Origin: Polyangiaceae bacterium
GTDB lineage: Bacteria > Myxococcota_A > Polyangia > Polyangiales > Polyangiaceae
Length of the DNA: 64,000 nucleotides
Direction of reading: 5' to 3'
Assembly (NCBI GenBank): GCA_043755175.1
Contig: JAYUUB010000002.1
Location: 12,067-76,066 of the forward strand
Below the pieces are notes generated by a model. It made no database searches. It saw nothing but the letters and a program-made list of their open reading frames with translations, and was not told the DNA's origin. This document shows, in pieces, positions 6,501-44,032 of the stretch (position 1 is its first letter; each line of letters begins with the position of its first letter). The position numbers were made by a program, and so were the translations under genes.

Positions 6501-7383
6501 CGCCGTCGGTGATCCGAGCGCACGGGTTCTCGCTCGCCTCGATGTCGCACGCATCGCCGCTGCCGAGAGCTCGTTCGCGCAAGCCGAGGTCGTTCTCGCG
6601 CAGGCGCGTGACCTCTGCCACGACTCCGACCTTCTCGCACGCGCCCTCTCCGCAGAGGTCGAGCTCGCGGAGCGCACCGGCGAAATCACTCGAGGCCGTG
6701 ACGCTGCGCGGGCGCTCTCCGCCCTCGGGCCCGTTGGCGACGCGCGCGTTCTCCTCGACGCGGCGACGCTCTTCGCCGAGGCGCTCGATCTCGCCGAGGC
6801 GACGCGCGCGATCGATCTCGCCTACGAAATAGGGCTCGTCGACACCGCCGCGCTTCGCGCCAGCGTCGAAGCCCGTCGAGCACGCGTGCTCCTGATCGCC
6901 GGCGAGGCGACGTCGGCTCAACGTACGAGCCTGCTCGCCGCCGACCTCGCCGAGGCGCACGAGCTCTTCTTCGACGTCGCGAGCGCGAAGCTCACCTTGG
7001 CCGATGCCTACCTCGCCCTCGACCGTCCCGAGCGGGCGTGTGCAGCGTTCGTCGAGGCGCTCGAGGCTGCCGAAGGGGCCGGGCATGAGCGCCTCGTCGT
7101 TCTCGCTCGCGCCGGCTTGGCCTTCGTCGAGGGGCTGCGCGCCCATCTCGCCAAGTCTCAAGCGGCTCCTCTTCTCCTCTCGCGGATCGTGCAAGAAACC
7201 GAGGCTCGCGGCTTCATCGGCGACGCTTTGTACGTGCGCCTGCTTCTCGGCCGGCTCGAGCTGGCACGCGGCGACCTCGTCGCGGCGCGAAACGAGCTCG
7301 AGCGGGCCGAGAAGCAGGCGCTCTTCGTCGGTCATCGCGCGTTGGCTCGCGACTGCGCGAAAGAGCTCTTGCGCTGTGGTTGA
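3562..7383 (+). CDS. large signalling protein: N-terminal Ser/Thr-kinase-like (predicted pseudokinase) domain, P-loop STAND/AAA NTPase and a TPR-like C-terminal region
   Basis: The ORF runs 3499-7383. I prefer ATG 3562, which is preceded by GGAGGAG at 3553-3559. The kinase fold is recognisable (LGTGSLTEAY..AIVVKRV...SDFAI...FSPEAL), but the catalytic loop reads HGPLTPQS (about 4006-4029) instead of HRDLKPxN. Walker A is GERGVGKT and Walker B-like is VVVALDDVQFLD. The C-terminal half is long, Ala/Leu/Arg-rich and helical. Confidence 0.8.
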   Translation: MLTEFGRYLLTERLGTGSLTEAYRAKSFGVEGFEKAIVVKRVLPNLADLPGFLEAFVEQAKASLALSHANVAQVIDLGRITTELSGERVARDHTFIATELVEGTDIGTLLRHARDKQVEVPIGLALFVAAEVAKALDHAHKRRSGGVLHGPLTPQSVLVSWEGEVKVSDFAIHRALGAVRFEPDEARSLPYFSPEALRHEAPRPQSDVFSLGALLFELLTREVAFGGSDAEKTRARIAAATPRSVSSLRPEASGDIDELVSKMTAAEVSRRFGDAARLHEEIVALGYELGVSSSHVEMAAFVSRLCRRGEAPTRLSEDLPASFVEATPTPSAVTRAEKREATLLVATGLDTTDGRSELLLHIERAGGVVLSRDGTEVRAVFGLRDADGRDTEAAVGAALDLLRDAPETGIGIDLARVMVDEQGVVVGDVELAASFALAARLASSQKGCVRVSRAAGRAVEREIELEAESGDDESLRATARRARSLPSSRFVGRRAQVEDLGKAFGRAVRGELTTAFVVGERGVGKTRLLAELERRLAKLPAGAHFFRAACPRDWTGSPTPFAAVAELTRALIGTASIDGAVGVSEVEPRGAKDEGGEIVRRLRSLGLDENDTSELVALASATKRLASEKSPARALGRVLERLARDGTVVVALDDVQFLDSASARVLETVFSEAEPRRVLLILAGRSLPRGVFSRTEPTLLGPLDEADVAVLTAGLLGARVLPPELVGYLNERAEGSPLLVELIVKELSDAALVTVRQGIAQVDLAHASVPRTLRAIIEGRLARLESSSGPSDPGPREVLRAMAVLGSGATNEEISAFVDVSFDRVNAVLAEPGVKALLSVGRLSGTLAEVVLETIPAEERARSHARAAELVGAAGEPTGERLDRVGAHLAASGDASGAAFQFARAAALHANPLGVGVGHRVARPDLAARSAARALSTADLDELEASDLRAWLSILAESVVRSRARVGFVDIAANVIERIDAVGDPSARVLARLDVARIAAAESSFAQAEVVLAQARDLCHDSDLLARALSAEVELAERTGEITRGRDAARALSALGPVGDARVLLDAATLFAEALDLAEATRAIDLAYEIGLVDTAALRASVEARRARVLLIAGEATSAQRTSLLAADLAEAHELFFDVASAKLTLADAYLALDRPERACAAFVEALEAAEGAGHERLVVLARAGLAFVEGLRAHLAKSQAAPLLLSRIVQETEARGFIGDALYVRLLLGRLELARGDLVAARNELERAEKQALFVGHRALARDCAKELLRCG

Positions 7384-7386
7384 CCT

Positions 7387-7785
7387 GTGAGCTTGGCGAC
7401 GATGTCACTCGACGGACCCCCTGTTAACATGGCGATCGTGGATCCGACGCTCGAAGCGCTCTGGTTGTCGGTCGTCGAAGAATGGGGGGACGACGAACGG
7501 CATGGCAAGCTGCTCGCTTACGCCCAGCAGACGCGGCAGCTCGGCGACGTCGCGGGCCTCTACCGTCGGGTCAACGAAGACGGCTCGCCGTACCGCGTAT
7601 CTGCCGACCACTTGATCGACGCCAAGAAGCGATTGGCCGGCGTCGCAATGCTCGCCGTCATGGATCTCGATTCGACGAAGTCAGATGCGACTGATGTCCG
7701 AGGTCAACACATCGTACGGATCATCGGCTTCGTCGTCGTGCTCGGGCTCTTCGCGGCGCTCGGTTGGTTGCTTCTTCAACGATGA
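7387..7785 (+). CDS. small hypothetical protein with a C-terminal transmembrane helix
   Basis: The ORF starts 4 nt after the upstream stop. Candidate starts are GTG 7387, ATG 7402 and ATG 7429. The C-terminus IVRIIGFVVVLGLFAALGWLLLQR is a clear TM segment. I recognise no family. Confidence 0.5.
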   Translation: MSLATMSLDGPPVNMAIVDPTLEALWLSVVEEWGDDERHGKLLAYAQQTRQLGDVAGLYRRVNEDGSPYRVSADHLIDAKKRLAGVAMLAVMDLDSTKSDATDVRGQHIVRIIGFVVVLGLFAALGWLLLQR

Positions 7786-7901
7786 GCGTGCGACGAGCGA
7801 GCCGCGTCGTTCGGTACTCTCCGATCGCCGAAAACGCCTTTCCGCGCGGGGGCCGCGCTCGCCTCACGAGCCCAGTTCTACGAGGGCAGCGGCGCGGTGA
7901 C

Positions 7902-8393
7902 TCAGTGGTTGTGGTGTTTCTCGCGAACGACGAACACGGGGCATCCGGCGTGGCGGACGACCTTTTCCGCCACCGAGCCGAGCAAGAGCCGTTTGATACC
8001 CGTGCGCCCATGGGTCGCGAGCACGATGACGTCTGCGTCGACTTTCTTAGCCAACCCGACGATTTCTTCGCTCGGATCCCCGCTCACGTTGTGAATCTCG
8101 AGTCGCGGTGCCGCGCCATGGGCGTGGTGCAAAACGAACTCTGACAGGTGTCGGTCGCAGAACGCGCGGACCCCCGAAGGATCGTACCCGGTGAGATCCG
8201 GCGCATCGACCGCGGTGGGCTCGACGTTGGCGAGGTTCGGCTCGGCCACATGAACGACGTGCACGACGCCGGCTTCGGTCGGTCGGTCTTCGCCGTCGGC
8301 GCCGAGCACCGGCGACGCAGCGAGCGTCATCGCGCGCGAGAAGACGAGAACACTACCCTTGAACAGATCGATGGCGGCGACGACGACGGGCAT
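7902..8393 (-). CDS. universal stress protein (UspA family)
   Basis: The C-terminal motif DVIVLATHGRTGIKRLLLGSVAEKVVRHAGCPVFVV is the USP ATP-binding signature. I chose start ATG 8393 (MPVVVAAIDL...). The track ORF extends to 8642 with an Arg-rich, implausible N-terminus. Confidence 0.85.
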   Translation of the reverse strand: MPVVVAAIDLFKGSVLVFSRAMTLAASPVLGADGEDRPTEAGVVHVVHVAEPNLANVEPTAVDAPDLTGYDPSGVRAFCDRHLSEFVLHHAHGAAPRLEIHNVSGDPSEEIVGLAKKVDADVIVLATHGRTGIKRLLLGSVAEKVVRHAGCPVFVVREKHHNH

Positions 8394-8959
8394 GGGACTT
8401 TCGCTCACTGTGCGGGCGGCGAGACGACCCGACGCTGCGACCATACCATGAGCAATGGACAATGCGGCGAGCCCTCGATTGGTTGTTTCGTCGGCTCGTG
8501 GGTCTCTATTTTCAGAACATCGAAGAGGTGGGAAAACGTCCCGCCGCGACCACGCGCTCGCGGCTCTTCGTCGCACGTGTCGCCGACCAGCCCCCTCGGC
8601 AAGTCGTCGCGCTCGCGAGGTCGACATGCACTCGACGCTCAAGCTCGGGACGGGTCTCCTCGTCTACCCCGTTCGGGCAGCCATCCTCGCGGCGACGCTC
8701 TTCGCGCTCGTTCGGCGGCACTGGCTTTTGCCAACCTCGGCCGTGGTGTTCGTCGTCCGTTCGCCGCGCGCGACTGGCTCGAGCATCGAAGCAAGCTCTC
8801 GCGAAGCTCGATCCCGCGACGCTTGACCGAGCTCTCTCGCGCGAGCGGAAAGGCGCTCGATCGGATTCGCGAGGCAGACGCCGTCCTCTCGGAACGCGCT
8901 CCAGCCGAGGCGCCGGGCTGACTCCAGCCTGCTGGATCGAGGGAGTCGCCGAGCCCCGT

Positions 8960-34339: not shown

Positions 34340-35050
34340 TCAACGGTTGCCCTTCACCACGTTCATGAGCGCAGAGAAGTCGTCGAGCGATGCCTTCGGG
34401 ATGTTGAGCGAGAAGCGTGATCGGAAGGGGCCTTCCGAGACGGTCCCTTGGTAGACGATGGGCGTCTGCCCTTTGTTGGGCAGGCCCTGGAACAGCTTTT
34501 CCATTTTCCCGCTCACGTCGAGCATGTCGTCTTCGCTGCCGCCGCCGCTGCCTCGAATGAAGAACACCGCCGCAAGCGCTCGAAAGCTTCCGAGCGTCAT
34601 GAACCCGCCCGATGCGACCTTGAGCGACTTGAGGCTTTGGGCGTCTGCGCGACCGTCGACGGTCTTGTCTTTCGGCGCACCGCTCTTGACCCCGAGCAGG
34701 CGCTCGACGAGCTCTTCGCGGTTTCCACCGAACGCGACCCAAGAGCTGTCTCCGTCGGCCATCACCAAAATGTAGAAGGTGACCGAGGCCGGAGCTTTGT
34801 CGCTCTTCGCGTCTTTGGCGTCTTTCTTCGGATCGCGTTTCGCGTCGGGCCTCTTGTCGTGCTTCTTTCCAAAGACGACGCCGATGTCCATTTCGAAGGC
34901 GCCCTTGCCGAGCTTCGCGGGCGGCGCCGGAGTCTTCACGGTCGGAACCACGTCGCTCAGGGCTTTCTTCAGCTCCTTCTGCATGCCGGGCTGGGCGTAC
35001 GCGCCGGCCGCGTCTTTCAGCCACTTCGCGACAGCATCAGCCTTCTGATT
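34340..35050 (-). CDS. C-terminal segment of the interrupted lipoprotein gene (or an independent ORF from ATG 34984)
   Basis: It is in the same frame as 35051-36307. The 22 codons between the TAG at 35053-35051 and ATG 34984 keep coding-like composition (17/22 G/C at third positions by my count). Confidence 0.5.
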   Translation of the reverse strand, partial: NQKADAVAKWLKDAAGAYAQPGMQKELKKALSDVVPTVKTPAPPAKLGKGAFEMDIGVVFGKKHDKRPDAKRDPKKDAKDAKSDKAPASVTFYILVMADGDSSWVAFGGNREELVERLLGVKSGAPKDKTVDGRADAQSLKSLKVASGGFMTLGSFRALAAVFFIRGSGGGSEDDMLDVSGKMEKLFQGLPNKGQTPIVYQGTVSEGPFRSRFSLNIPKASLDDFSALMNVVKGNR

Positions 35051-36307
35051 CTAGCCGATGAGGTTCCAACCCATCTGCGTGTCGAAGATGGCCCCGATCT
35101 TCTCGGACGCCGATTTCGGCGTCGAGGGCTTGGAGATCATGCGGTTACCGGTCGCCGAGACGATCTGTTCGCCCTTCAGCAGCGGGAAATCGAGCAGAGC
35201 GCTCAGCTTCTTGCGCTCGGCCTCGCTGCCGACCTTCAGCTTCGCGAGCCCCCCTTCGATGAGGTCTTTGCCGACACGCAGCATCGGGGCGTAGTCGTTC
35301 GGGTTGACGATTCTTCCGAAGGTGACCGAGTCGGCGTCGGCCGGCGCTTGGAAGAAGAGAGCTGGAAACGGTCCGCTCATGGCTGCTGCGGTTTCGCGCG
35401 CGATCCACGACGTCTTGCTCTTGTAGTCGACCGCGCCCTCGACGTTCACGCCTCCTTGCGGCGAGAGCGTCACGTTGAAGCTCACCTTGTCGACGTCGGC
35501 GAAGAGCGCGATGGCTTCGTCGGTGAGGCCGCGTGCGCCGGCCTCGATGGCTCGGTCGAACTGCGGCTCGCCGATCCCGAGCTCGCTTCGCGCGAGACGG
35601 GGCGCTTGTGGCGCGAGCTTGGCGAGGTCGGCTCCGAATCGCGCGTTGAGCGGCGACACCAACAGCTCGAGGGTGACGTCGCTCGCAGGCGAGGCTTGAG
35701 TCGAGAGGGTGCGTGTGAGGTAGCCGCCGAGCGCTTGAACGTCACGCTCGGACGGACCGCAGACCGCCCGCGCAGGTACCGGGCCCGACGCGACCGCGAC
35801 GACGCAGAAGGCCTTCGCGCGCTCTCCTCCGAACGCCCACATTCCGGGCGCGAGCTCGCGCGTCGCACCGAGCGCGATCTTGGCCTCGTCGAGCGACTTG
35901 AGCCCCACGGCGACCGCCATCATCGGCTCGGGGGGGCCATCGGTGGGCATGGCAGCCACGAAGTCGACCGGTGCGTCGAGCGCGACGACCGACGCGGCCT
36001 TCGAGGCGTCGACGTCGAGTCGAAGCCCACCGCGACCGGTGAGCTCTCGGAGTGTCGCCGTCGTCAGATCGCTCTGGGCGCCGCCGAAGCCGAGGGTCGC
36101 GATCGTCGCGGTCAGGCTTTTCGCACGGCCCGTGGCAAAAACGCCGGTGGGGGCGGGGACAGGGGAGAGATCGAACGCGGGAGCGGCGACCGCTGTCGCG
36201 GTGACGGCCGGCTTGGGTGCCGCCTGCTCGACGCGCGGAGGAGCAGAAGAACAGGCCGCGGTCGCCAGGATGACGGATAGCGAGATGAGGCGAAAAGTCG
36301 TTCGCAT
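35051..36307 (-). CDS. hypothetical lipoprotein, N-terminal segment ending at an in-frame TAG
   Basis: Start ATG 36307 (MRTTFRLISLSVILATAAC, lipobox). The ORF terminates at TAG 35053-35051, and the downstream ORF continues in frame. Confidence 0.6.
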   Translation of the reverse strand: MRTTFRLISLSVILATAACSSAPPRVEQAAPKPAVTATAVAAPAFDLSPVPAPTGVFATGRAKSLTATIATLGFGGAQSDLTTATLRELTGRGGLRLDVDASKAASVVALDAPVDFVAAMPTDGPPEPMMAVAVGLKSLDEAKIALGATRELAPGMWAFGGERAKAFCVVAVASGPVPARAVCGPSERDVQALGGYLTRTLSTQASPASDVTLELLVSPLNARFGADLAKLAPQAPRLARSELGIGEPQFDRAIEAGARGLTDEAIALFADVDKVSFNVTLSPQGGVNVEGAVDYKSKTSWIARETAAAMSGPFPALFFQAPADADSVTFGRIVNPNDYAPMLRVGKDLIEGGLAKLKVGSEAERKKLSALLDFPLLKGEQIVSATGNRMISKPSTPKSASEKIGAIFDTQMGWNLIG

Positions 36308-36381: not shown

Positions 36382-36957
36382 TCAGCCGCCCTTTCTGGCG
36401 ATGAACGGCACGATGCGATCGACGAACGCCTGTTTGTGGAAGCGGTCGAACTCGGACCAAGTCGTCAGCGTTCGAGGGTCTTTCACTCGGTCGAGAAACA
36501 CGATCCCGTCGAGGTGGTCGGTCTCGTGCTGAAAGGTCCCGGCCGTGAGACCGGTCACTTTTCGACGCTCTTCGTTTCCGTGTCGATCCCAGCTCGTGAC
36601 CTCGAGATCGGCGAACCGCTCGACCACGCCGCGAAGGTTGGGGACGCTGAGGCAGCCTTCGTAGTTCTCGAAGGTCTCGTCACCGACGGCCGTCAAAACC
36701 GGGTTGACCAAAATGGTCAGTGGCACATTCGGTTTGTAAGGGTAACGGGGATTGTCCTTCACTTCGATTGCACAAACCCGAACCGGCATGTGCACCTGCG
36801 GCGCCGCGAGGCCGGCTCCGTTCGCATCGCGCATGGTCTCGACGAGATCGTCGATGAAGGTTTGCATCGCGCCAGACGCGAGCTCTTCGCGCGTCACTTC
36901 GCGCGAGCGCTGACGGAGCACGGGGTGACCGAGTTGGGCGATCTCGAGGAGTGTCAC
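36382..36957 (-). CDS. def: peptide deformylase
   Basis: Motifs GAGLAAPQV, EGCLSVP and QHETDHLDG. The GTG start at 36957 overlaps the upstream stop (GTGA). The track ORF extends to 37293 but its N-terminus is Arg-rich junk. Confidence 0.9.
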   Translation of the reverse strand: MTLLEIAQLGHPVLRQRSREVTREELASGAMQTFIDDLVETMRDANGAGLAAPQVHMPVRVCAIEVKDNPRYPYKPNVPLTILVNPVLTAVGDETFENYEGCLSVPNLRGVVERFADLEVTSWDRHGNEERRKVTGLTAGTFQHETDHLDGIVFLDRVKDPRTLTTWSEFDRFHKQAFVDRIVPFIARKGG

Positions 36958-39137
36958 CCGCGACAAGGTAGCAGAGCGTCGGGCTCGTGCGCGCTCACGG
37001 CCCGCCCCTCGAATGCGGCGTCGAGAGCCGCGACGCGCGTCGGACCGTCGGGATCGAGCTTGGGGGTGAGATCGCGGATCATCGGATCGGAGGGGCCGAC
37101 GAACGCTCGAGGGATCGCCGCGAGGAGCAGAGCGAGAATGAAGAGCGGTCCGGCCCAAAGGAGGTCGTTTCGCCGCAGGTCGGGGAGAACGCCTCCGAAG
37201 GGCTCGAGATACTTGCTGGAACGCCAGGCGCGCGGTTGTGCGCCGAACACGACGCGCGCGGTGCGCGCTGCAGCGGCCACCGAAAGGAGCCAACCGAGCG
37301 TCCCGAGACCGGTCAGCCAGGGGTTGCGTCCGAGCGAGCCGAGCAGTCCGACCAGAGGCCCGATGACCCCCGGAAAGATGGGCGCTGCGAGCCCAATCGT
37401 GCCGAGCACCAGCGCCGCCGACAAGACTGGCGCGCTTCTACCGAGCCCCGACAAGCGCTCCAAATCGTGCGTTCCGACGTGAACCACCGCCATCTTCGTG
37501 GCGACGTAGAACAAGGACGCCACGACTGCGTGGGCGCTCACGAGACCGATGGCAGACTCGATGCCGTGTGGCGTCAGCGAGAACGCGAGAAGCAGAATGA
37601 GCCCACCGCGGGCCACCGCCAGGTGGGCTCCGAGTCGCACGATGTCACGCTCGACCAGCGCCCACGCCCCGCCGACCACGAGCAACGCGACGCCGATTGC
37701 TGGCAGGCTCTCTGCGCCCCACCGCGCCCCGTCGAGCTCGATCGAGAGACAGAGTCGCAAGATCGAGTAGCCCGAGAGCGCCGGAAGGAGCGCCCCGACG
37801 AGCACGGTCTTCGCCGGTGAAGATTCGGCGCCCTCGGAGGGGCTCCCGAGATCTTTGAGCCAGCCGTGAACGGGAACCAGTGGAAGAAACGCGGCGCACC
37901 CCAGGAACGAGAGGAGCCACGCCGCGCGATATCCGGGCAGGCCGATCATCGGTAGGAGATCGTTCACGAAGTGGGCGCGCGCAAGATCGGGAAAGGCATA
38001 GACCGCGGCGGCTTCGGAGCCATCGACGAGGTAGCAACCCCCCGTGTGGGTCGACATCCACCGAACGGCGACTGCGAGCGAGACGGTCGACGAGATGCCC
38101 ACGATGGCGAGCTTCGCGCTGGCCTTCTTCGACGAGTCCCAGGTGAGGTAGACCGCGCCGGCGATCGTGAATGCCCAACCGAGGAGGAGAAGCAGGCTCG
38201 TCTGCGCGACGAGGACGAGCACCGCTCCGCTCACGACGATCGCTGCGCCACCAATGGCTCGTCGCGCTCCGCCGAGGCGCGTGTCGGTCGTCAGGATCGC
38301 TGTGAGCCCGACGACCGTCGCCGCGAGCAACGCGGCGATCGAGAGCCCGTCGACCCCGAGGAACAGCTCGAGGCCGTTCCGACCGTCGAGGACCGAGCGC
38401 TCGATGAACTGGAGGCCGTCGTTGCCGTCGCGTTTTCCGAGCTCGCGATCGAAGCTCGCGAAGAGCCACGTGGCGAGGGCGCACTCGATGAACATGATCG
38501 CGCCGGCCGCGATTCGAAGGGTGCGATCGCCCAAAGACCGGACGAAACGCGATGAAAACGCGAGGAGTGCCACCAAGAACGGAATCATGACCAGGAGTGA
38601 GAGTGCGTGTCGCGCGAGCCCGAGGCGGCGTTGCGCGACGACCCCGATGAGCTTGGGCGCGTCGACCACCTTCGCGTCGGGTTGGGCTGCGTCGGAGTCG
38701 ACGACGAGCTCGGCGTAGAGCTCGCTCGCTCTCACGTCGGCCGAGTGCCACGTCACGAAGTACTTCCGCGATTGTCCTGGAGCGATCGACGAACGCGTGC
38801 CGCCTTCGGGCTGTGCGACGAGACCGCTCGGGCTGCGCGGATCGTCGTCGGCATCGAGAACGTAGACCCGATTGATCGTCAGAGGTCCCGGTCCGGAGTT
38901 GCGGACCTCGAACGCGCCAGTGTAGTCGCCGCCCTCACCGCGAAGGAGCCTCACGGGTTCGCCGATCGGGCTACGGACCTCGAGCTGGCCGCGCGGGCCC
39001 TTCGGGGGAACCGAGACCCGCTTCTCGACTTTGAAGCGCTCGGCCCCCATGTGCGCATGGGCGACGACGGGCGAGGCGACGAAGGCCATCAAGACGGCGA
39101 TGACGAAGAAAAGCGCACGCATGCCATTGTGCTTCAT
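36954..39137 (-). CDS. polytopic membrane protein: N-terminal secreted beta-rich domain plus a degenerate NuoM/ND4-like antiporter-type domain
   Basis: Signal peptide (ALFFVIAVLMAFVASPVVAHA) and an approx. 150-aa Ig-like segment (AFEVRNSGPGPLTINRVYV...IAPGQSRKYFVTW). By-eye NuoM-like blocks follow: LFLGVDGLSIAALLAATVVGL, LLLGWAFTIAG, LPLVPVHGWLKDLG and ERDIVRLGAHLAVARGG. Confidence 0.55.
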   Translation of the reverse strand: MKHNGMRALFFVIAVLMAFVASPVVAHAHMGAERFKVEKRVSVPPKGPRGQLEVRSPIGEPVRLLRGEGGDYTGAFEVRNSGPGPLTINRVYVLDADDDPRSPSGLVAQPEGGTRSSIAPGQSRKYFVTWHSADVRASELYAELVVDSDAAQPDAKVVDAPKLIGVVAQRRLGLARHALSLLVMIPFLVALLAFSSRFVRSLGDRTLRIAAGAIMFIECALATWLFASFDRELGKRDGNDGLQFIERSVLDGRNGLELFLGVDGLSIAALLAATVVGLTAILTTDTRLGGARRAIGGAAIVVSGAVLVLVAQTSLLLLLGWAFTIAGAVYLTWDSSKKASAKLAIVGISSTVSLAVAVRWMSTHTGGCYLVDGSEAAAVYAFPDLARAHFVNDLLPMIGLPGYRAAWLLSFLGCAAFLPLVPVHGWLKDLGSPSEGAESSPAKTVLVGALLPALSGYSILRLCLSIELDGARWGAESLPAIGVALLVVGGAWALVERDIVRLGAHLAVARGGLILLLAFSLTPHGIESAIGLVSAHAVVASLFYVATKMAVVHVGTHDLERLSGLGRSAPVLSAALVLGTIGLAAPIFPGVIGPLVGLLGSLGRNPWLTGLGTLGWLLSVAAAARTARVVFGAQPRAWRSSKYLEPFGGVLPDLRRNDLLWAGPLFILALLLAAIPRAFVGPSDPMIRDLTPKLDPDGPTRVAALDAAFEGRAVSAHEPDALLPCRG

Positions 39138-41455
39138 GCGTCGTCCTTCGGAGATGCGCTCGATCGTGACGCGAGCCGTGCGAGCAAGTCGAGTGGCGCG
39201 TCGAGGAGTTGCTCGAGCCCCAGGATCAACCGCGCGAGACTTCCAGGCGATCCGTCGTCTCGCACGCGGTTCTCACGCGGAGTCTTCGCTTCGCAGAACC
39301 ACTCGAGAGCACCGCGCCTGTCGCGTGCTGCCCAGTCGGCGGGCCTGCCCGACGAGTAGCGAGCGCGCGCCAGATGCCCGGCGATCGCAGCCGGAATCGC
39401 GAGCGCCGCAAACACGAGCACGCGCGCCGTGGTCGTTTGGCCGACGGGTTGTTCGAGCACGCCGAGCATGACGCCGACCAACGGGCCTGCGACGCACGCC
39501 GCGGTGGCGATCGCCGAGGCGGTTCGATCGGTCGGGGCCGACGAGCCCGGGGCCGCGAGGCTCGCGCCTCGAGCGCGCTGTGAGTCGGTCGAGCTCTTCT
39601 TGGCGCGTCCCTGGCCTTCGGCCGCGCTCTGCTTCGCCGTATTCTTGCCGGCCTGCGGAGTCGCAGCCAGTGGAGATTCGGTGAGATCGGTGGGAGATGC
39701 GACTGCATGCGAGACGCAAAAGTAAGCGCGATACACGGCGTGAGCGAGGGCTGCCCAAGCCGCCGCGGCGAGGAGCGCGATCGCCACACCGAGGGCGCCG
39801 CCACGCGCGAGAGCTGCGGCACCGATGGCTCCGACGCCGACGAAGACGCCGACAAAAGGAACGGGAGAGCCAGCTAGCGCCAAGACGGCGATCGCGAGCG
39901 ACGTTCCCTCGCCTACGCGAGAGCCTTCACCGAGGCCAGCGCCGATCTCGATCTGCGCGAGGGGCTCGAGCTCGTCGACGTCGTTGGTCGCACGTTCGAG
40001 AACGATCCCGATCGCCACGAGTGAAAACGCGGCGGCTACCGCGAGTGACATCGCACCGGCGGAAGCCGAAGAAGCGCTCGCGGCCAAGACGAGCGCGACG
40101 ACGGTGCGCGACGATTCGGCGACGAAGGTCGTGCTACGAAACGCACGGGCCGATCGCAGCGCAGCGAAGAGCGCGACGCCGAGAGCTAGCAGGGTCACCA
40201 CGCCCCCGAGGCTCGGGCTCGCAGCGAAGATCCCCGAGAGGCGTCCGCCGATGACCGCCGCGAGGATGGAGGTAAAGCCACCAGCGAACCCGACGACGCG
40301 CGGATCGTCGGTCATCGCTCCCGTGCGCCGCTCCCGCGCGGAGGAGCCGCCGAGCGCCATCACGAGCCCGAGACCTGCGAGCCCGAACGCGATGCAGGCG
40401 CCGTCGACGATGCGAAACGATCCGAGCTGCCTCTCGGCGAACGTGCTCGCGCTCGCATCGAGCTGACGGTCGATCTCGCGGAAGGTGATCGATGGACCCA
40501 CCGCTCGGACTTCGACCTCTTCGTTTGGCGGAAAGCGTACTTGCTGGATGAGCGCGATGTCCCTGGAATCGCCGCCGAGAATGGTGCCTCCGCCGGGGTC
40601 GATCGTCACCTTCTGAAGGCCGGCGGGAAGCTCGGCACGAACGAACGGCGCTATGGCGAACGGCTCGGTCCTCGGAGTGAGCTGCGAGTCGTTGGCGAGA
40701 CCGAGGTACACCTTCGCGCCCGGTCGTGTGAGCACCGTCAGGTAGCTCTTGTCGCCCACCTTCGGCGGGTGAACTCCGGCGACGTCTTTGGTCGCCGACT
40801 CGGTGGGCTCTTTGGAGCTCGCCTCGAACGGAGCTCGGTAGTCGGAAAGATATCGACGCCCGTCGAGGTAGCGCCCGCCCAACCCCCAGAACACCAACCC
40901 TGAACCGAGCGCGAGCATCAGCGCACCCGCGGTGATCGTACCCAAGGCTCGAGCGCCGGCCCGGGGCGATGTCGCACCGACGAGCACGGCGACGACGATT
41001 CCGAAGGCGGTCCAACCCGTGAGCAGGGTCGCGAATCCGTCGCCGAGCACCGACACCAGGAGCGCCGAGACCGCAAGGCCGATGCCCGCCTGTGAGGCCG
41101 GCGTGCGTCTGCGGAGCGAGGGAGTGAGCACCGAAAAGAGCCCGAGCACGAGGAGAGCGAACGCGAGCACCGCGCTCTTCGTGTCGAGCCAGAAGCCGAG
41201 GTTTGCGTCGAGCGATCCCACGCGCGCGAGGCGGAGCGCATGTGAAAACACGCGTTGGCCCGACAAGAGCGGTCGGCCGGCGATCGCCAGCGCGGCCATC
41301 GCAGCCACGATCGACGCTCCGACGACGCGGGCCGCGTTGGGGCCAGCCGTCTTCGACATGCCTGCGCCGCGCGCCGTGACGAGGCTCGCGAGTGCACCGA
41401 GCGCGACGAGCAGAGGGACCAGATAGAGCGGAATGGAGCTCAGGACCACGTTCAT
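39134..41455 (-). CDS. polytopic membrane protein: degenerate NuoL/ND5-like N-terminal region with an inserted PEGA-like soluble domain
   Basis: ATG 41455 overlaps the sigma-factor stop (ATGA). By-eye NuoL-like blocks are LGFWLDTKSAVLAFALLVLGLFSV and LLTGWTAFGIVVAVLVG (canonical GWEGVG). A soluble insert of about 150 aa carries SYLTVLTRPGAKVYLG...LTP...ELPAGLQKVTI. Further Ala/Gly-rich TM helices follow. Confidence 0.5.
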   Translation of the reverse strand: MNVVLSSIPLYLVPLLVALGALASLVTARGAGMSKTAGPNAARVVGASIVAAMAALAIAGRPLLSGQRVFSHALRLARVGSLDANLGFWLDTKSAVLAFALLVLGLFSVLTPSLRRRTPASQAGIGLAVSALLVSVLGDGFATLLTGWTAFGIVVAVLVGATSPRAGARALGTITAGALMLALGSGLVFWGLGGRYLDGRRYLSDYRAPFEASSKEPTESATKDVAGVHPPKVGDKSYLTVLTRPGAKVYLGLANDSQLTPRTEPFAIAPFVRAELPAGLQKVTIDPGGGTILGGDSRDIALIQQVRFPPNEEVEVRAVGPSITFREIDRQLDASASTFAERQLGSFRIVDGACIAFGLAGLGLVMALGGSSARERRTGAMTDDPRVVGFAGGFTSILAAVIGGRLSGIFAASPSLGGVVTLLALGVALFAALRSARAFRSTTFVAESSRTVVALVLAASASSASAGAMSLAVAAAFSLVAIGIVLERATNDVDELEPLAQIEIGAGLGEGSRVGEGTSLAIAVLALAGSPVPFVGVFVGVGAIGAAALARGGALGVAIALLAAAAWAALAHAVYRAYFCVSHAVASPTDLTESPLAATPQAGKNTAKQSAAEGQGRAKKSSTDSQRARGASLAAPGSSAPTDRTASAIATAACVAGPLVGVMLGVLEQPVGQTTTARVLVFAALAIPAAIAGHLARARYSSGRPADWAARDRRGALEWFCEAKTPRENRVRDDGSPGSLARLILGLEQLLDAPLDLLARLASRSSASPKDDA

Positions 41456-42138
41456 GCGAGCGACTTTTTCTCCATCTCCGCGCTTGAGGCTCGTGGCTCG
41501 TTCGCTTGGTCGGTCGGTGTCGAGCTCTCGCTTCGTTGTGCGCCGCCCCCCCATCCCCGGTCGGTGAGGCAACTCCGAAGCGCGTGGATCGCGCGAGCGG
41601 CTCGGGATTTGATCGTTCCGAGGGGCACGCCGTCCCGCTCTGCCATCTCCGGGTACGACAGCCCTTCGAAGAAAGCGATGATCAACGTGTCACGCTGCGC
41701 CTTCGGTAGAATATTCATCGCATCGCGCACGGCTTTGCGTTCGCGCTCGAGCGTGAGGCGCGTCTCGGGATCGTCGACGGCGATGCCGAGCGCCTCGACC
41801 TCTGGTCGAAGATCGTTGTCGGCGATTTGGGCGCGGCGGGTGCGCCTGCGCGTTCGATCGAGCGAGAGGTTGCGAACGGTGGTGAGGAGCCAGGCGGCGA
41901 CGGTGCCGCGCTCGGCCTGGTACTGATGCGCGCGCTCGACGACGGCCATGAACGCGTCGTGAACGATGTCTTCGGCCTCTTCGGCGTCACGGACGATCTT
42001 CAGCGCGAGCCCGAGCGCCGTCTTGGCATACCGATCGTACAGGTCTCCGACCGCCGTGGCGTCACCGCTACGAAGCCTCTCGAGCGCAGCGATGTCGGCA
42101 TCGTCTCGCTCAGCCCTGTTGTCGTCCCCAAGGACCAT
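41452..42138 (-). CDS. ECF-type RNA polymerase sigma-70 family factor
   Basis: Region 2 (DAEEAEDIVHDAFMAV...AWLLTTVRNLSLDRTRRR) and region 4 (LPKAQRDTLIIAFFEGLSYPEMAERDGVPLGTIKSRAARAIHALR). Start ATG 42138 is preferred. Confidence 0.9.
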   Translation of the reverse strand: MVLGDDNRAERDDADIAALERLRSGDATAVGDLYDRYAKTALGLALKIVRDAEEAEDIVHDAFMAVVERAHQYQAERGTVAAWLLTTVRNLSLDRTRRRTRRAQIADNDLRPEVEALGIAVDDPETRLTLERERKAVRDAMNILPKAQRDTLIIAFFEGLSYPEMAERDGVPLGTIKSRAARAIHALRSCLTDRGWGGGAQRSESSTPTDQANEPRASSAEMEKKSLA

Positions 42139-42220
42139 GGTCGGTCTGCCCCCGTGGCGCTCACACCACAAGGTCGCGGGTTATGCCGGGTTTCCTGGTC
42201 GGCGGCTAGCCCCGCGGGCT

Positions 42221-43015: not shown

Positions 43016-43374
43016 TTGATCTCCTCTTCGGCGCGGGCCGTGACCTCGAAGTGAGGCTTGCAGCGTTCGCACTGACAGAGCGCTCGCAGATACCTGAACG
43101 AGTAGATACCCGTCGAATGGCTGTCGCCCCACGCGAAAGAGAGGCCGTAGTTTCCGACGCGCTCGATCTGGCGAAGCTCGAGAGGCAGCGAGCCCGTGAC
43201 GTCGACACGACGGATCGTCCCGCCGTGACCCTGGCAATGGGCGCATGGGCAGTAGCCGCGGAGGACATCGTGCGGCAGCACCGAGTGATGTCCGTCTGCC
43301 CAGGTGATCTCCATGACCATCGCACCGTGCGGGGCCTTGACGCCGGTGGGCGTGATGCTCGGCTCGTTCGCCAT
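43012..43374 (-). CDS. DUF971-family small protein (gamma-butyrobetaine-hydroxylase-like N-terminal domain)
   Basis: 120 aa with ITWADGHHSVLPHDVLRGYCPCAHCQGH...FAWGDSHSTGIYSFRYLRALC, the DUF971 pattern. Confidence 0.7.
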   Translation of the reverse strand: MANEPSITPTGVKAPHGAMVMEITWADGHHSVLPHDVLRGYCPCAHCQGHGGTIRRVDVTGSLPLELRQIERVGNYGLSFAWGDSHSTGIYSFRYLRALCQCERCKPHFEVTARAEEEIK

Positions 43375-43519
43375 GGCCGGGACCTTACCACGGGCCCTCG
43401 ATTCAGGCTTTGAAGCGCCACCGAAGACTTTCTGCGCCGCTCTCGGAACGCGTATACTTTCCTTGGGTGATCGAGGCGCTCTGCTGCGCTCGGCTTTTCA
43501 CGACGACTACGAGGTCACG

Positions 43520-44032
43520 ATGAGCAGCTCTGCGCGTCCGTCGGATTTGGCCTTTCTGTCGGTCGCGGCCGCGGTGACGGCCTGCGCGATGAGCTGCGCA
43601 CAAGGATCGAGCGACGTCATCGGAAGCGGTGGCTCCGGCGGCGCTTCGACCGGGCCTTCGACCACGGCGCAGAAGGGCGCGGCGACGACGGGGCCGTCGA
43701 CCACCGGCCCTTCGACGGGCGCGGTGACGAGCGGACCATCGACGACCGTCACGAGCGGTCCCTCGGGATCGACCGTGAGCTCGACGAGCGTGGTCTCTTC
43801 GTCGGCCGTGGCTTCATCGTCGAGCGGCGGCGGCACCTGTCACGATCCGTGCACCGTCGGCACGGCGCTGACACCCCTCGCGTGCCTCACGGCTCTCGCG
43901 ACGGAGCTTTGCGCGCAAGACGTCTGCGGTAACACCGGATTGGAGTACTGTTGCACGAGCAACTGGGATGCTGGCTGCGTGGCGGGCGCCGGCAACTCCA
44001 CCACGTGTCTCCTCGGCGGGTTCTTTTGCTGA
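43520..44032 (+). CDS. secreted or lipoprotein-like Ser/Thr/Gly-rich protein with a Cys-rich C-terminal module
   Basis: ATG 43520. N-terminus FLSVAAAVTACAMSC, then about 90 aa of GPSTT-type low complexity, then 10 Cys in the last approx. 65 aa (CHDPC...CAQDVCGNTGLEYCCTSNWDAGCV...C...C). Confidence 0.6.
   Translation: MSSSARPSDLAFLSVAAAVTACAMSCAQGSSDVIGSGGSGGASTGPSTTAQKGAATTGPSTTGPSTGAVTSGPSTTVTSGPSGSTVSSTSVVSSSAVASSSSGGGTCHDPCTVGTALTPLACLTALATELCAQDVCGNTGLEYCCTSNWDAGCVAGAGNSTTCLLGGFFC

Follow-up and report, generated by a model that had tools for sequence, protein, structure and literature searches.

A 64,000-nucleotide stretch from a Polyangiaceae bacterium (GenBank assembly GCA_043755175.1, contig JAYUUB010000002.1, positions 12,067 to 76,066; hereafter the window) carries four coupled genes on its minus strand. 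The first encodes a 228-residue sigma factor of the extracytoplasmic function (ECF) type (41452..42138, with the domains Sigma70_r2, Sigma70_r4_2 and Sigma70_ECF), followed by a degenerate NuoL-like protein of 773 residues with 15 predicted transmembrane (TM) helices (39134..41455), a degenerate NuoM-like protein of 727 residues (36954..39137; TIGR01972, E = 4.2e-36; PF00361, E = 1.3e-17) and the peptide deformylase Def (36382..36957; PF01327, E = 4.4e-46). Each gene overlaps the next by 4 nt: the sigma stop with the NuoL-like start (ATGA), the NuoL-like stop with the NuoM-like start (ATGA), and the NuoM-like stop with the GTG start of def (GTGA). Here, we show that the NuoL-like protein (L) keeps the fold of an antiporter-like complex I subunit and has lost every ionisable position of the NuoL proton path, pointing to a catalytically dead NuoL descendant that probably now serves a task outside respiration. 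All coordinates are on the minus strand unless stated otherwise.

The L open reading frame is intact, running from the ATG at 41455 to the stop at 39134-39136. Two observations support this start: the orthologues share the N-terminal MNV(V/E)LSP, and the preceding gene ends in a stop that overlaps the ATG; on the same grounds, a longer reading from the TTG at 41572 is unlikely. An initial annotation, made from the letters and their open reading frames, had described L as colinear with NuoL by eye, and this assignment stands. L matches the NuoL of Sorangium cellulosum (WP_061612243.1, hereafter P0005; 863 aa, PF00662 and PF00361) at E = 3.8e-47, and P0005 in turn finds NuoL/NdhF chains of known structure with E-values of 2e-113 to 2.5e-94, so that the colinearity is far beyond chance. 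Homology had to be bridged through P0005 because a direct sequence search of the PDB with L gave noise only. A Pfam search with L returned no match at E ≤ 1, and TIGR01974 (NDH_I_L) aligned to residues 13-161 at E = 0.0055, scoring 15.6 bits where the cut-off is 407.5; L thus falls below the thresholds of the NuoL/ND5 hidden Markov models (TIGR01974, PF00662 and PF00361).

An AlphaFold2 (AF2) model of L, built on a 73-sequence family alignment, reached a mean predicted local distance difference test score (pLDDT) of 85.7 and a predicted TM-score (pTM) of 0.89. The top 50 Foldseek matches to this model were all complex I chains of the L/ND5/NdhF type (best E = 4e-12, probability 1.00), with TM-scores of 0.57-0.69 for the top matches when normalised to the L chain. 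The modelled fold and TM order are those of NuoL, and the distribution of positive charges fits an N-out topology: L keeps the antiporter-like fold and the NuoL topology with its N-terminus outside. TM1-TM6 (residues 1-192, 40880..41455) are delimited by the model, by invariant columns in alignments A1 and A5 and by the weak TIGR01974 match, and include the TM2-TM3 β-hairpin (residues 68-90, 41186-41254) with conserved R78, G80, S81 and D83. TM14 and TM15 (residues 641-700, 39356..39535; helices 641-663 and 675-700) align with P0005. The hairpin and the discontinuous TM12, both preserved in the model, are shared with the solved NuoL/ND5/NdhF chains of E. coli (7Z7S_L), T. thermophilus (4HE8_L) and M. 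smegmatis (8E9G_L); identity to such chains is 12-15%, and they differ from L in lacking its large periplasmic insert and in possessing the charged channel residues, the helix HL and TM16 that L lacks.

Antiporter-like subunits (NuoL/M/N, MrpA/D) are defined by a buried chain of Glu and Lys residues. The canonical TM5 motif is GWEGVG, and its Glu (Glu144 in E. coli NuoL) is essential for proton translocation. We mapped L onto P0005 in the 73-member family alignment, with canonical positions in E. coli NuoL numbering. At the TM5 Glu the alignments confirm the Thr noted in the initial annotation: Thr149, codon ACC at 41009..41011, within LLTGWTAFG, where GWEGVG has become GWTAFG. The same holds all along the path. 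E144 (TM5) corresponds to T149, D178 (TM6) to A178, K229 (TM7) to L364, H254 (TM8) to G392, H334 (TM10/11) to A475, K342 (TM11) to L479, K399 (TM12) to V541 and D400 (TM12) to G542. Thus, L has a non-ionisable residue at each of the eight ionisable positions of the NuoL proton path, and the explicit mapping of the TM5 Glu, TM7 Lys and TM12 Lys that the initial annotation had proposed finds all three replaced and none at its canonical position. A second alignment, including newly fetched loci, gave the same eight replacements. Across TM7-TM13 (residues 349-582, 39710..40411), delimited by the AF2 helices and the column mapping of alignment A5 against P0005, every canonical charged residue is replaced. 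These residues are universal in NuoL and represent the ancestral state, relative to which L is derived and degenerate. Among the 73 full-length representatives of the family, the TM5 Glu is kept in 10, the TM7 Lys in 13, the TM11 Lys in 4 and the TM12 Lys in 4; since clustering of the representatives at 50% identity condenses the canonical proteins, which evolve slowly, abundance cannot be read from these counts.

Structural elements of the pump are gone as well. TM7b and the TM7-8 motif of the WLPxAMxxPTPVSAL type, which the initial annotation could not find, are indeed missing from L, with the hydrophilic loop SSARERRTGAMTDDPR in their place. The long amphipathic helix HL and its TM16 anchor are also absent: L ends 73 residues after TM15, where P0005 runs on for about 130 residues with a long HL and TM16. 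What follows TM15 is a charged cytoplasmic tail (residues 701-773 plus stop, 39134..39355) with predicted helices at 708-724 and 738-766; judging from its alignment with the start of HL, this tail is a putative remnant of the beginning of that helix. Between TM13 and TM14 lies a cytoplasmic, predicted disordered Ser/Lys/Ala low-complexity loop (residues 583-640, 39536..39709; pLDDT about 47-56). Both this segment and the charged tail had been recognised at the outset.

These losses bear directly on whether L could still move ions by another route. L retains the antiporter-like fold and a few charges in the membrane, such as the conserved R405; with 10 charged or His residues still present in its TM helices, an unconventional ion pathway is formally possible. 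Against such a pathway, the canonical positions are hydrophobic or small in L (8/8) as well as in the NuoM-like protein (4/4), and a hydrophilic loop has taken the place of TM7b, which is one of the two broken helices at the heart of the mechanism. We therefore regard ion translocation through a non-canonical pathway as very unlikely.

The second distinguishing feature of L is a domain of about 155 residues inserted in the TM6-TM7 loop (residues 193-348, 40412..40879), a loop of about 20 residues in the solved NuoL chains. A soluble insert after TM6 had been placed at about 40420-40873 from the sequence alone, close to the boundaries in the AF2 model. None of the solved NuoL chains has a match to the equivalent part of P0005 (residues 226-395). 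The predicted architecture is an 8-9-strand β-sandwich followed by helices, including an amphipathic one, with pLDDT mostly 86-97 within the full model and a pLDDT of 80 and pTM of 0.73 when the insert was modelled alone. NuoL has a periplasmic N-terminus. Since the TM order of L is colinear with NuoL, and 29 Lys and Arg residues lie in the cytoplasmic loops against 4 in the short periplasmic loops, the insert loop can be placed in the periplasm, in agreement with the initial annotation. That annotation had named three outcomes that would speak against it (a Glu/Lys set at the canonical positions, no significant similarity to antiporter-like subunits, or an insert predicted to be cytoplasmic and disordered), and we observed none of them.

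The proposed resemblance of the insert to a PEGA domain is weak. PF08308 (PEGA) is the sole Pfam family matched by several insert sequences (4/43 family members, best E = 3.3e-4; 1/8 family members at E = 0.036), and the insert family shares with PEGA the pattern P-G-A-x-V and, downstream, (S/T)P-x-x-x-x-L-x-x-G-x-H-x-V-x-I. The insert of L itself gave no match to PF08308, and when the insert profile was compared with one PEGA protein by hhalign, the probability was 1.2%, with only the (S/T)P...G.H.V.I core aligned. Foldseek found no significant solved relative, its best match being the pVHL β-domain (E = 0.28, TM-score about 0.3). Compared with PEGA, the insert has extra strands and C-terminal helices. 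We thus consider the insert weakly PEGA-like.

To trace the insert, we searched its profile against 1.84 billion representative proteins. At E ≤ 1e-3, 200 proteins were recovered, nearly all of which hold the insert at residues 180-240 and are 550-900 residues long. A homologue search with the insert alignment A3 returned one irrelevant fragment only, and a GTDB scan with alignment A4 returned a single locus. A search with P0005 recovered more than 120 clusters of NuoL proteins of 850-1000 residues (PF00662 and PF00361; Sorangium, Minicystis, Byssovorax and Polyangiaceae metagenome-assembled genomes (MAGs); annotated NuoL), and because they span all or nearly all of P0005 (100% for most), the insert is included. 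The same search found no second, insert-less NuoL in Sorangium, although one may be present. One insert-bearing NuoL, P0060, keeps all eight residues; its gene belongs to an operon of the order nuoH-nuoI-x-nuoJ-nuoK-nuoL-nuoM-nuoN, next to which lie ATP synthase genes. The NuoM of this operon shares its N-terminal extension with the NuoM-like protein of the window, and the NuoH carries a PDZ extension at its N-terminus. It follows that the insert decorates genuine complex I in this lineage and that L inherited it from a residue-complete Polyangiaceae NuoL.

A metagenomic scaffold (scaffold_8534_c1, locus L010:5107-16520) carries a genuine complex I operon (nuoH-I-x-J-K-L-M-N) with extra domains on several subunits: a NuoH of 639 residues with an N-terminal PDZ-containing extension, a NuoI of 335 residues, a NuoL of 911 residues with the TM6-7 insert and a NuoM of 743 residues with an N-terminal β domain. 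The PDZ-NuoH fusion is present at locus L005 too. We found no description of such decorated subunits in the literature searched.

Conservation along L is uneven, with the insert as its best-conserved part. Compared with P0002 and P0003, respectively, the insert (193-348) is 68% and 64% identical and its β core (234-330) 76% and 69%, against 42% and 44% for TM1-6, 41% and 33% for TM7-13, 14% and 16% for the low-complexity loop (583-640), and 27% and 29% for the tail (701-773). That the insert is far more identical than the TM regions and the tail indicates selection concentrated on the periplasmic domain. Across orthologous loci, identity amounts to 42-46% for L, 69-81% for the sigma factor (in the same position), 54-59% for the NuoM-like protein and 57-74% for Def. 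A pseudogenised nuoL that happens to be uninterrupted, that is, a functionless relic in decay, would account for the loss of all functional residues, the expanded low-complexity loop and the lower identity of L (42-46%) than of sigma, M and Def (54-81%). It sits poorly with intact L reading frames of similar length in at least ten divergent lineages (at least ten loci at 28-46% identity), with an insert 64-76% identical, with a confident AF2 model and with the maintenance of translational coupling and of fusions between L and its neighbour. A decaying relic is thus the most improbable of the explanations that we considered.

The protein encoded next to L appears to have followed the same course. 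The NuoM-like protein (M) has Ala or Thr (alignments differ on which) in place of the TM5 Glu, Phe in place of the TM7 Lys, Ala in place of the TM8 Lys and Pro in place of the TM12 Glu; the NuoM proteins of Sorangium and of L010 keep all four. With 4/4 key residues lost, M is, by its sequence, as dead as L. It too displays a periplasmic domain: residues 1-175 (38613..39137) comprise a predicted signal peptide and an immunoglobulin-like (Ig-like) β domain, identified by alignment and by weak matches to DUF4232, CARDB and DUF1573, and shared with the canonical NuoM of Sorangium and of L010. Comparing the insert profile of L with this domain by hhalign gave a probability of 1.9%, that is, no detectable homology between the two periplasmic domains.

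In several relatives, the two proteins are one. P0026, P0033, P0042, P0082 and P0122 match L at their N-terminal part and M, including its periplasmic domain, at their C-terminal part, and at locus L013 (5802-9839) a single stop-to-stop reading frame of 1345 codons covers both matches. Such fusions imply that L and M work together physically. The fusion polypeptides are 1100-1500 residues long, always NuoL-like first and NuoM-like second; that of P0033 is encoded directly 3' of an ECF sigma gene, and a fusion also lies at L009:2362-6843. At L017:6604-8698 the NuoM-like match is spread over two frames (6604-7083 and 7172-8698), reflecting either a frameshift or separate genes for the periplasmic and TM parts.

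The genomic context places L where canonical nuoL is found in related genomes. Upstream of L, both the window and related loci contain genes for accA, a metallophosphoesterase, a DUF971 protein and an EngB-like GTPase. The same four precede L in Sorangium (L003), where canonical nuoL-nuoM-nuoN follow with no sigma gene upstream, and in Minicystis rosea (L019, CP016211), where an orthologous sigma gene precedes canonical nuoL-nuoM-nuoN with a 470-bp spacer. Because of this shared context, L is the positional counterpart of Polyangiaceae nuoL. Among the loci compared, which are those sharing the DUF971-GTPase context, the arrangement of the window (sigma upstream, degenerate L and M, no nuoN) recurs in L004, L006, L007 (an uncultured Polyangiaceae MAG), L008, L009 (as an L::M fusion), L012, L015 and L016. 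At L017, sigma lies upstream, L keeps E, D, K, H and K399, and nuoN is absent; at L013, an L::M fusion has no sigma upstream. The def gene also follows the pair in L004, L006, L007 and L015; in L016 it adjoins the pair on the opposite strand. We found no functional reason for the coupling of def to a dead NuoM-like gene.

This positional equivalence raises the question of whether the pair still belongs to complex I, as a non-pumping distal module docking onto nuoA-K products encoded elsewhere. Such a structural role would agree with the placement of the pair where Sorangium and Minicystis have nuoL and nuoM, with the preserved fold, TM2-TM3 β-hairpin and broken TM12, and with the existence of intermediates, such as P0008, whose gene adjoins one for a PDZ-NuoH, and the L protein of L017 with its retained E, D, K, H and K399. 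To our knowledge, NuoN is the link between NuoM and NuoK/J/A in all complex I structures solved. The absence of nuoN from the locus therefore argues against docking, as do the truncation of the arm-clamping HL and TM16, the loss of channel residues from both subunits, the fast evolution of their TM regions and the lack of any other nuo gene in the 64-kb window, in which NuoM-like is the only adjacent complex I-type gene. On balance, we find it quite unlikely that the pair is a part of a complex I or complex I-like assembly.

The sigma factor offers a different possibility. The gene following that of an ECF sigma factor usually encodes its anti-sigma factor, and L is in this position, with an ATGA overlap that is kept in orthologues. 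The pair might therefore act as a membrane-bound, anti-sigma-like sensor of the co-translated sigma factor, its periplasmic domains sensing an envelope signal and a cytoplasmic element holding or releasing sigma. Besides the overlap of the sigma stop with the L start in the window, L004 and L006, this proposal draws on the presence of sigma directly upstream of L in 11/13 loci with the DUF971-GTPase context, and on these loci having no recognisable anti-sigma domain gene. Several observations tell against it. An orthologous sigma gene precedes canonical nuoLMN in Minicystis rosea, separated by the 470-bp spacer, which indicates that the association of sigma with the locus predates degeneration. 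L starts directly with TM1, without an N-terminal cytoplasmic domain, and neither the whole protein nor the tail alone matched anti-sigma domain families (zf-HC2/RskA type). The tail is 27-29% conserved, compared with 69-81% for sigma, and aligns with the start of HL. The Lys-rich TM13-14 loop was considered as an element that might bind sigma, an idea we rejected since the length of the loop among relatives (4 to 74 residues) does not follow the presence of sigma.

The promoter region of the sigma gene likewise looks like housekeeping rather than ECF autoregulation. The sigma ATG is preceded, 42 nt upstream, by a conserved motif, GGAAACCCGGCATAAC (42180..42195), which occurs once in the window and is kept in L001, an independent assembly of the window sequence, and in L004, L006, L007 and L015, the last four conserving its core CGGCATAAC. 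Its layout, a weak -35 (TAGCCG or TTGCTA), 17 nt and CATAAC, would be compatible with a possible sigma-A-type promoter; an autoregulated ECF-type promoter was rejected for want of a conserved -35/-10 ECF pair. L017 and L019 share instead GATCAAAACGGTTGACG upstream of sigma. In L019, the spacer between sigma and canonical nuoL (L019:9530-10000) holds a stretch of lower GC content, GGTGCAAATCTCCCTCAATTTCGGGGAAATGATG, and may contain the nuoLMN promoter. A 79-residue reading frame in that spacer, considered as a candidate anti-sigma factor, is probably a spurious call.

Taken together, the evidence leans against an anti-sigma-like sensor, which we consider unlikely, and any feedback of the pair on the sigma factor is possible but unsupported. 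A bolder version would see the dead NuoL/NuoM pair as a new kind of envelope sensor made from the distal pump modules of complex I, in which the PEGA-like and Ig-like domains detect a signal and the antiporter-like scaffold, built for long-range conformational coupling, relays it to the coupled ECF sigma factor; we hold this version to be somewhat less likely still.

Comparison with known systems places L closest to the canonical Polyangiaceae NuoL proteins, exemplified by P0005, P0232 of Minicystis rosea (883 aa) and P0060. At 33% identity over 61% of its length, L shares with them the TM6-TM7 β-sandwich with the motifs RYLSDYRARF and PGA(R/K)VYLG, the TM order, the position downstream of the DUF971 and EngB-like GTPase genes, and a NuoM partner with an N-terminal periplasmic domain. 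It has none of what they alone possess: HAFFK, SKDE, the long HL, TM16, matches above the PF00662 and PF00361 thresholds, and nuoN as a neighbour. MrpA/MrpD and other PF00361 modules (MbhH, DabB) belong to the same antiporter-like superfamily, and P0005 also matches MrpA, MbhH and DabB2 chains. These proteins keep the Glu/Lys network and serve as ion pathways. L, with this network lost and with no mrp, mbh or dabA genes in the window, is not an Mrp (CPA3) system. Transporter-derived sensors such as UhpC, Snf3/Rgt2 and Ssy1 have lost or reduced transport and re-use the fold as a membrane receptor or scaffold. They provide an analogy from general knowledge, not a homology, and any signalling output of L would be hypothetical.

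Weighing these observations, we favour, with moderate confidence, the view that L and M are a non-pumping pair whose retained role is to carry its periplasmic domains, as a platform in the membrane. L and M would form a heterodimer that, given the loss of residues, no longer translocates ions, and that would be retained to display the two domains on the periplasmic side. These domains might bind, scaffold or sense a partner in the envelope, as they probably already did on ancestral complex I. The short C-terminal helix of L could be what is left of HL, clamping the one M subunit next to it; at 29 residues it would span about one neighbouring subunit, which fits an HL shortened after the loss of NuoN. 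The pair would be co-expressed with the ECF sigma factor.

Several points weigh against the platform view. The term non-pumping is drawn from residue loss, and the ten charged or His residues left in the TM helices compare with 14 in canonical NuoL. The alignment behind the AF2 model held canonical NuoL sequences, which favours a NuoL-like model, and the interaction of L with M is deduced from fusions and gene order. Were a canonical nuoA-N set present elsewhere in the genome, the pair would be a paralogue or accessory subunit and not a remnant. Finally, the periplasmic domains are uncharacterised even on canonical complex I, and the insert alone had no Foldseek match in the PDB at E ≤ 0.001, hence no informative structural relative and no assignable fold family.

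Elsewhere in the window, a gene for a lipoprotein-like protein of 655 residues (34340-36307) lies downstream of def and is a conserved neighbour in L004, L007 and L013. Its codon 419 (35051-35053) reads TAG in the window and TCG (Ser) in L001, the only difference between the two assemblies over 17.4 kb, which reflects a nonsense polymorphism or else an error of assembly. On the plus strand, positions 43304-44032 encode a Ser/Thr/Gly-rich protein with a Cys-rich C-terminus (at least 8 Cys in the last 60 residues); at the counterpart of this position, L001 has on the opposite strand a 109-residue gene that has no Pfam match and may be spurious.

The loss of all eight residues, the inheritance of the insert, the dead NuoM neighbour and the ECF-sigma operon at a former nuoLMN position extend what the initial annotation had recognised. 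In public databases, the canonical long NuoL proteins are already annotated as NuoL, and the degenerate ones are nameless or labelled 'hypothetical protein'. The literature searched yielded no description of an L/M pair that lacks the whole Glu/Lys chain and is maintained across many lineages, and nothing relevant on NuoL/NuoM insertions in Myxococcota, on PDZ-NuoH or on a link of antiporter-like proteins with ECF sigma factors; the arrangement goes unmentioned in the ECF reclassification paper and in the complex I survey papers.

For the biology of the family, these results mean that Polyangiaceae complex I carries uncharacterised periplasmic domains on NuoL, NuoM and, as a PDZ domain, NuoH. 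The function of these domains appears to be separable from proton pumping and strong enough to preserve carriers that were once pumps. As a natural, fully dead antiporter-like fold, the pair is useful for separating structural from catalytic constraints on this superfamily. If it were true that the pair controls the adjacent ECF sigma factor, it would represent a new class of signal transducer.

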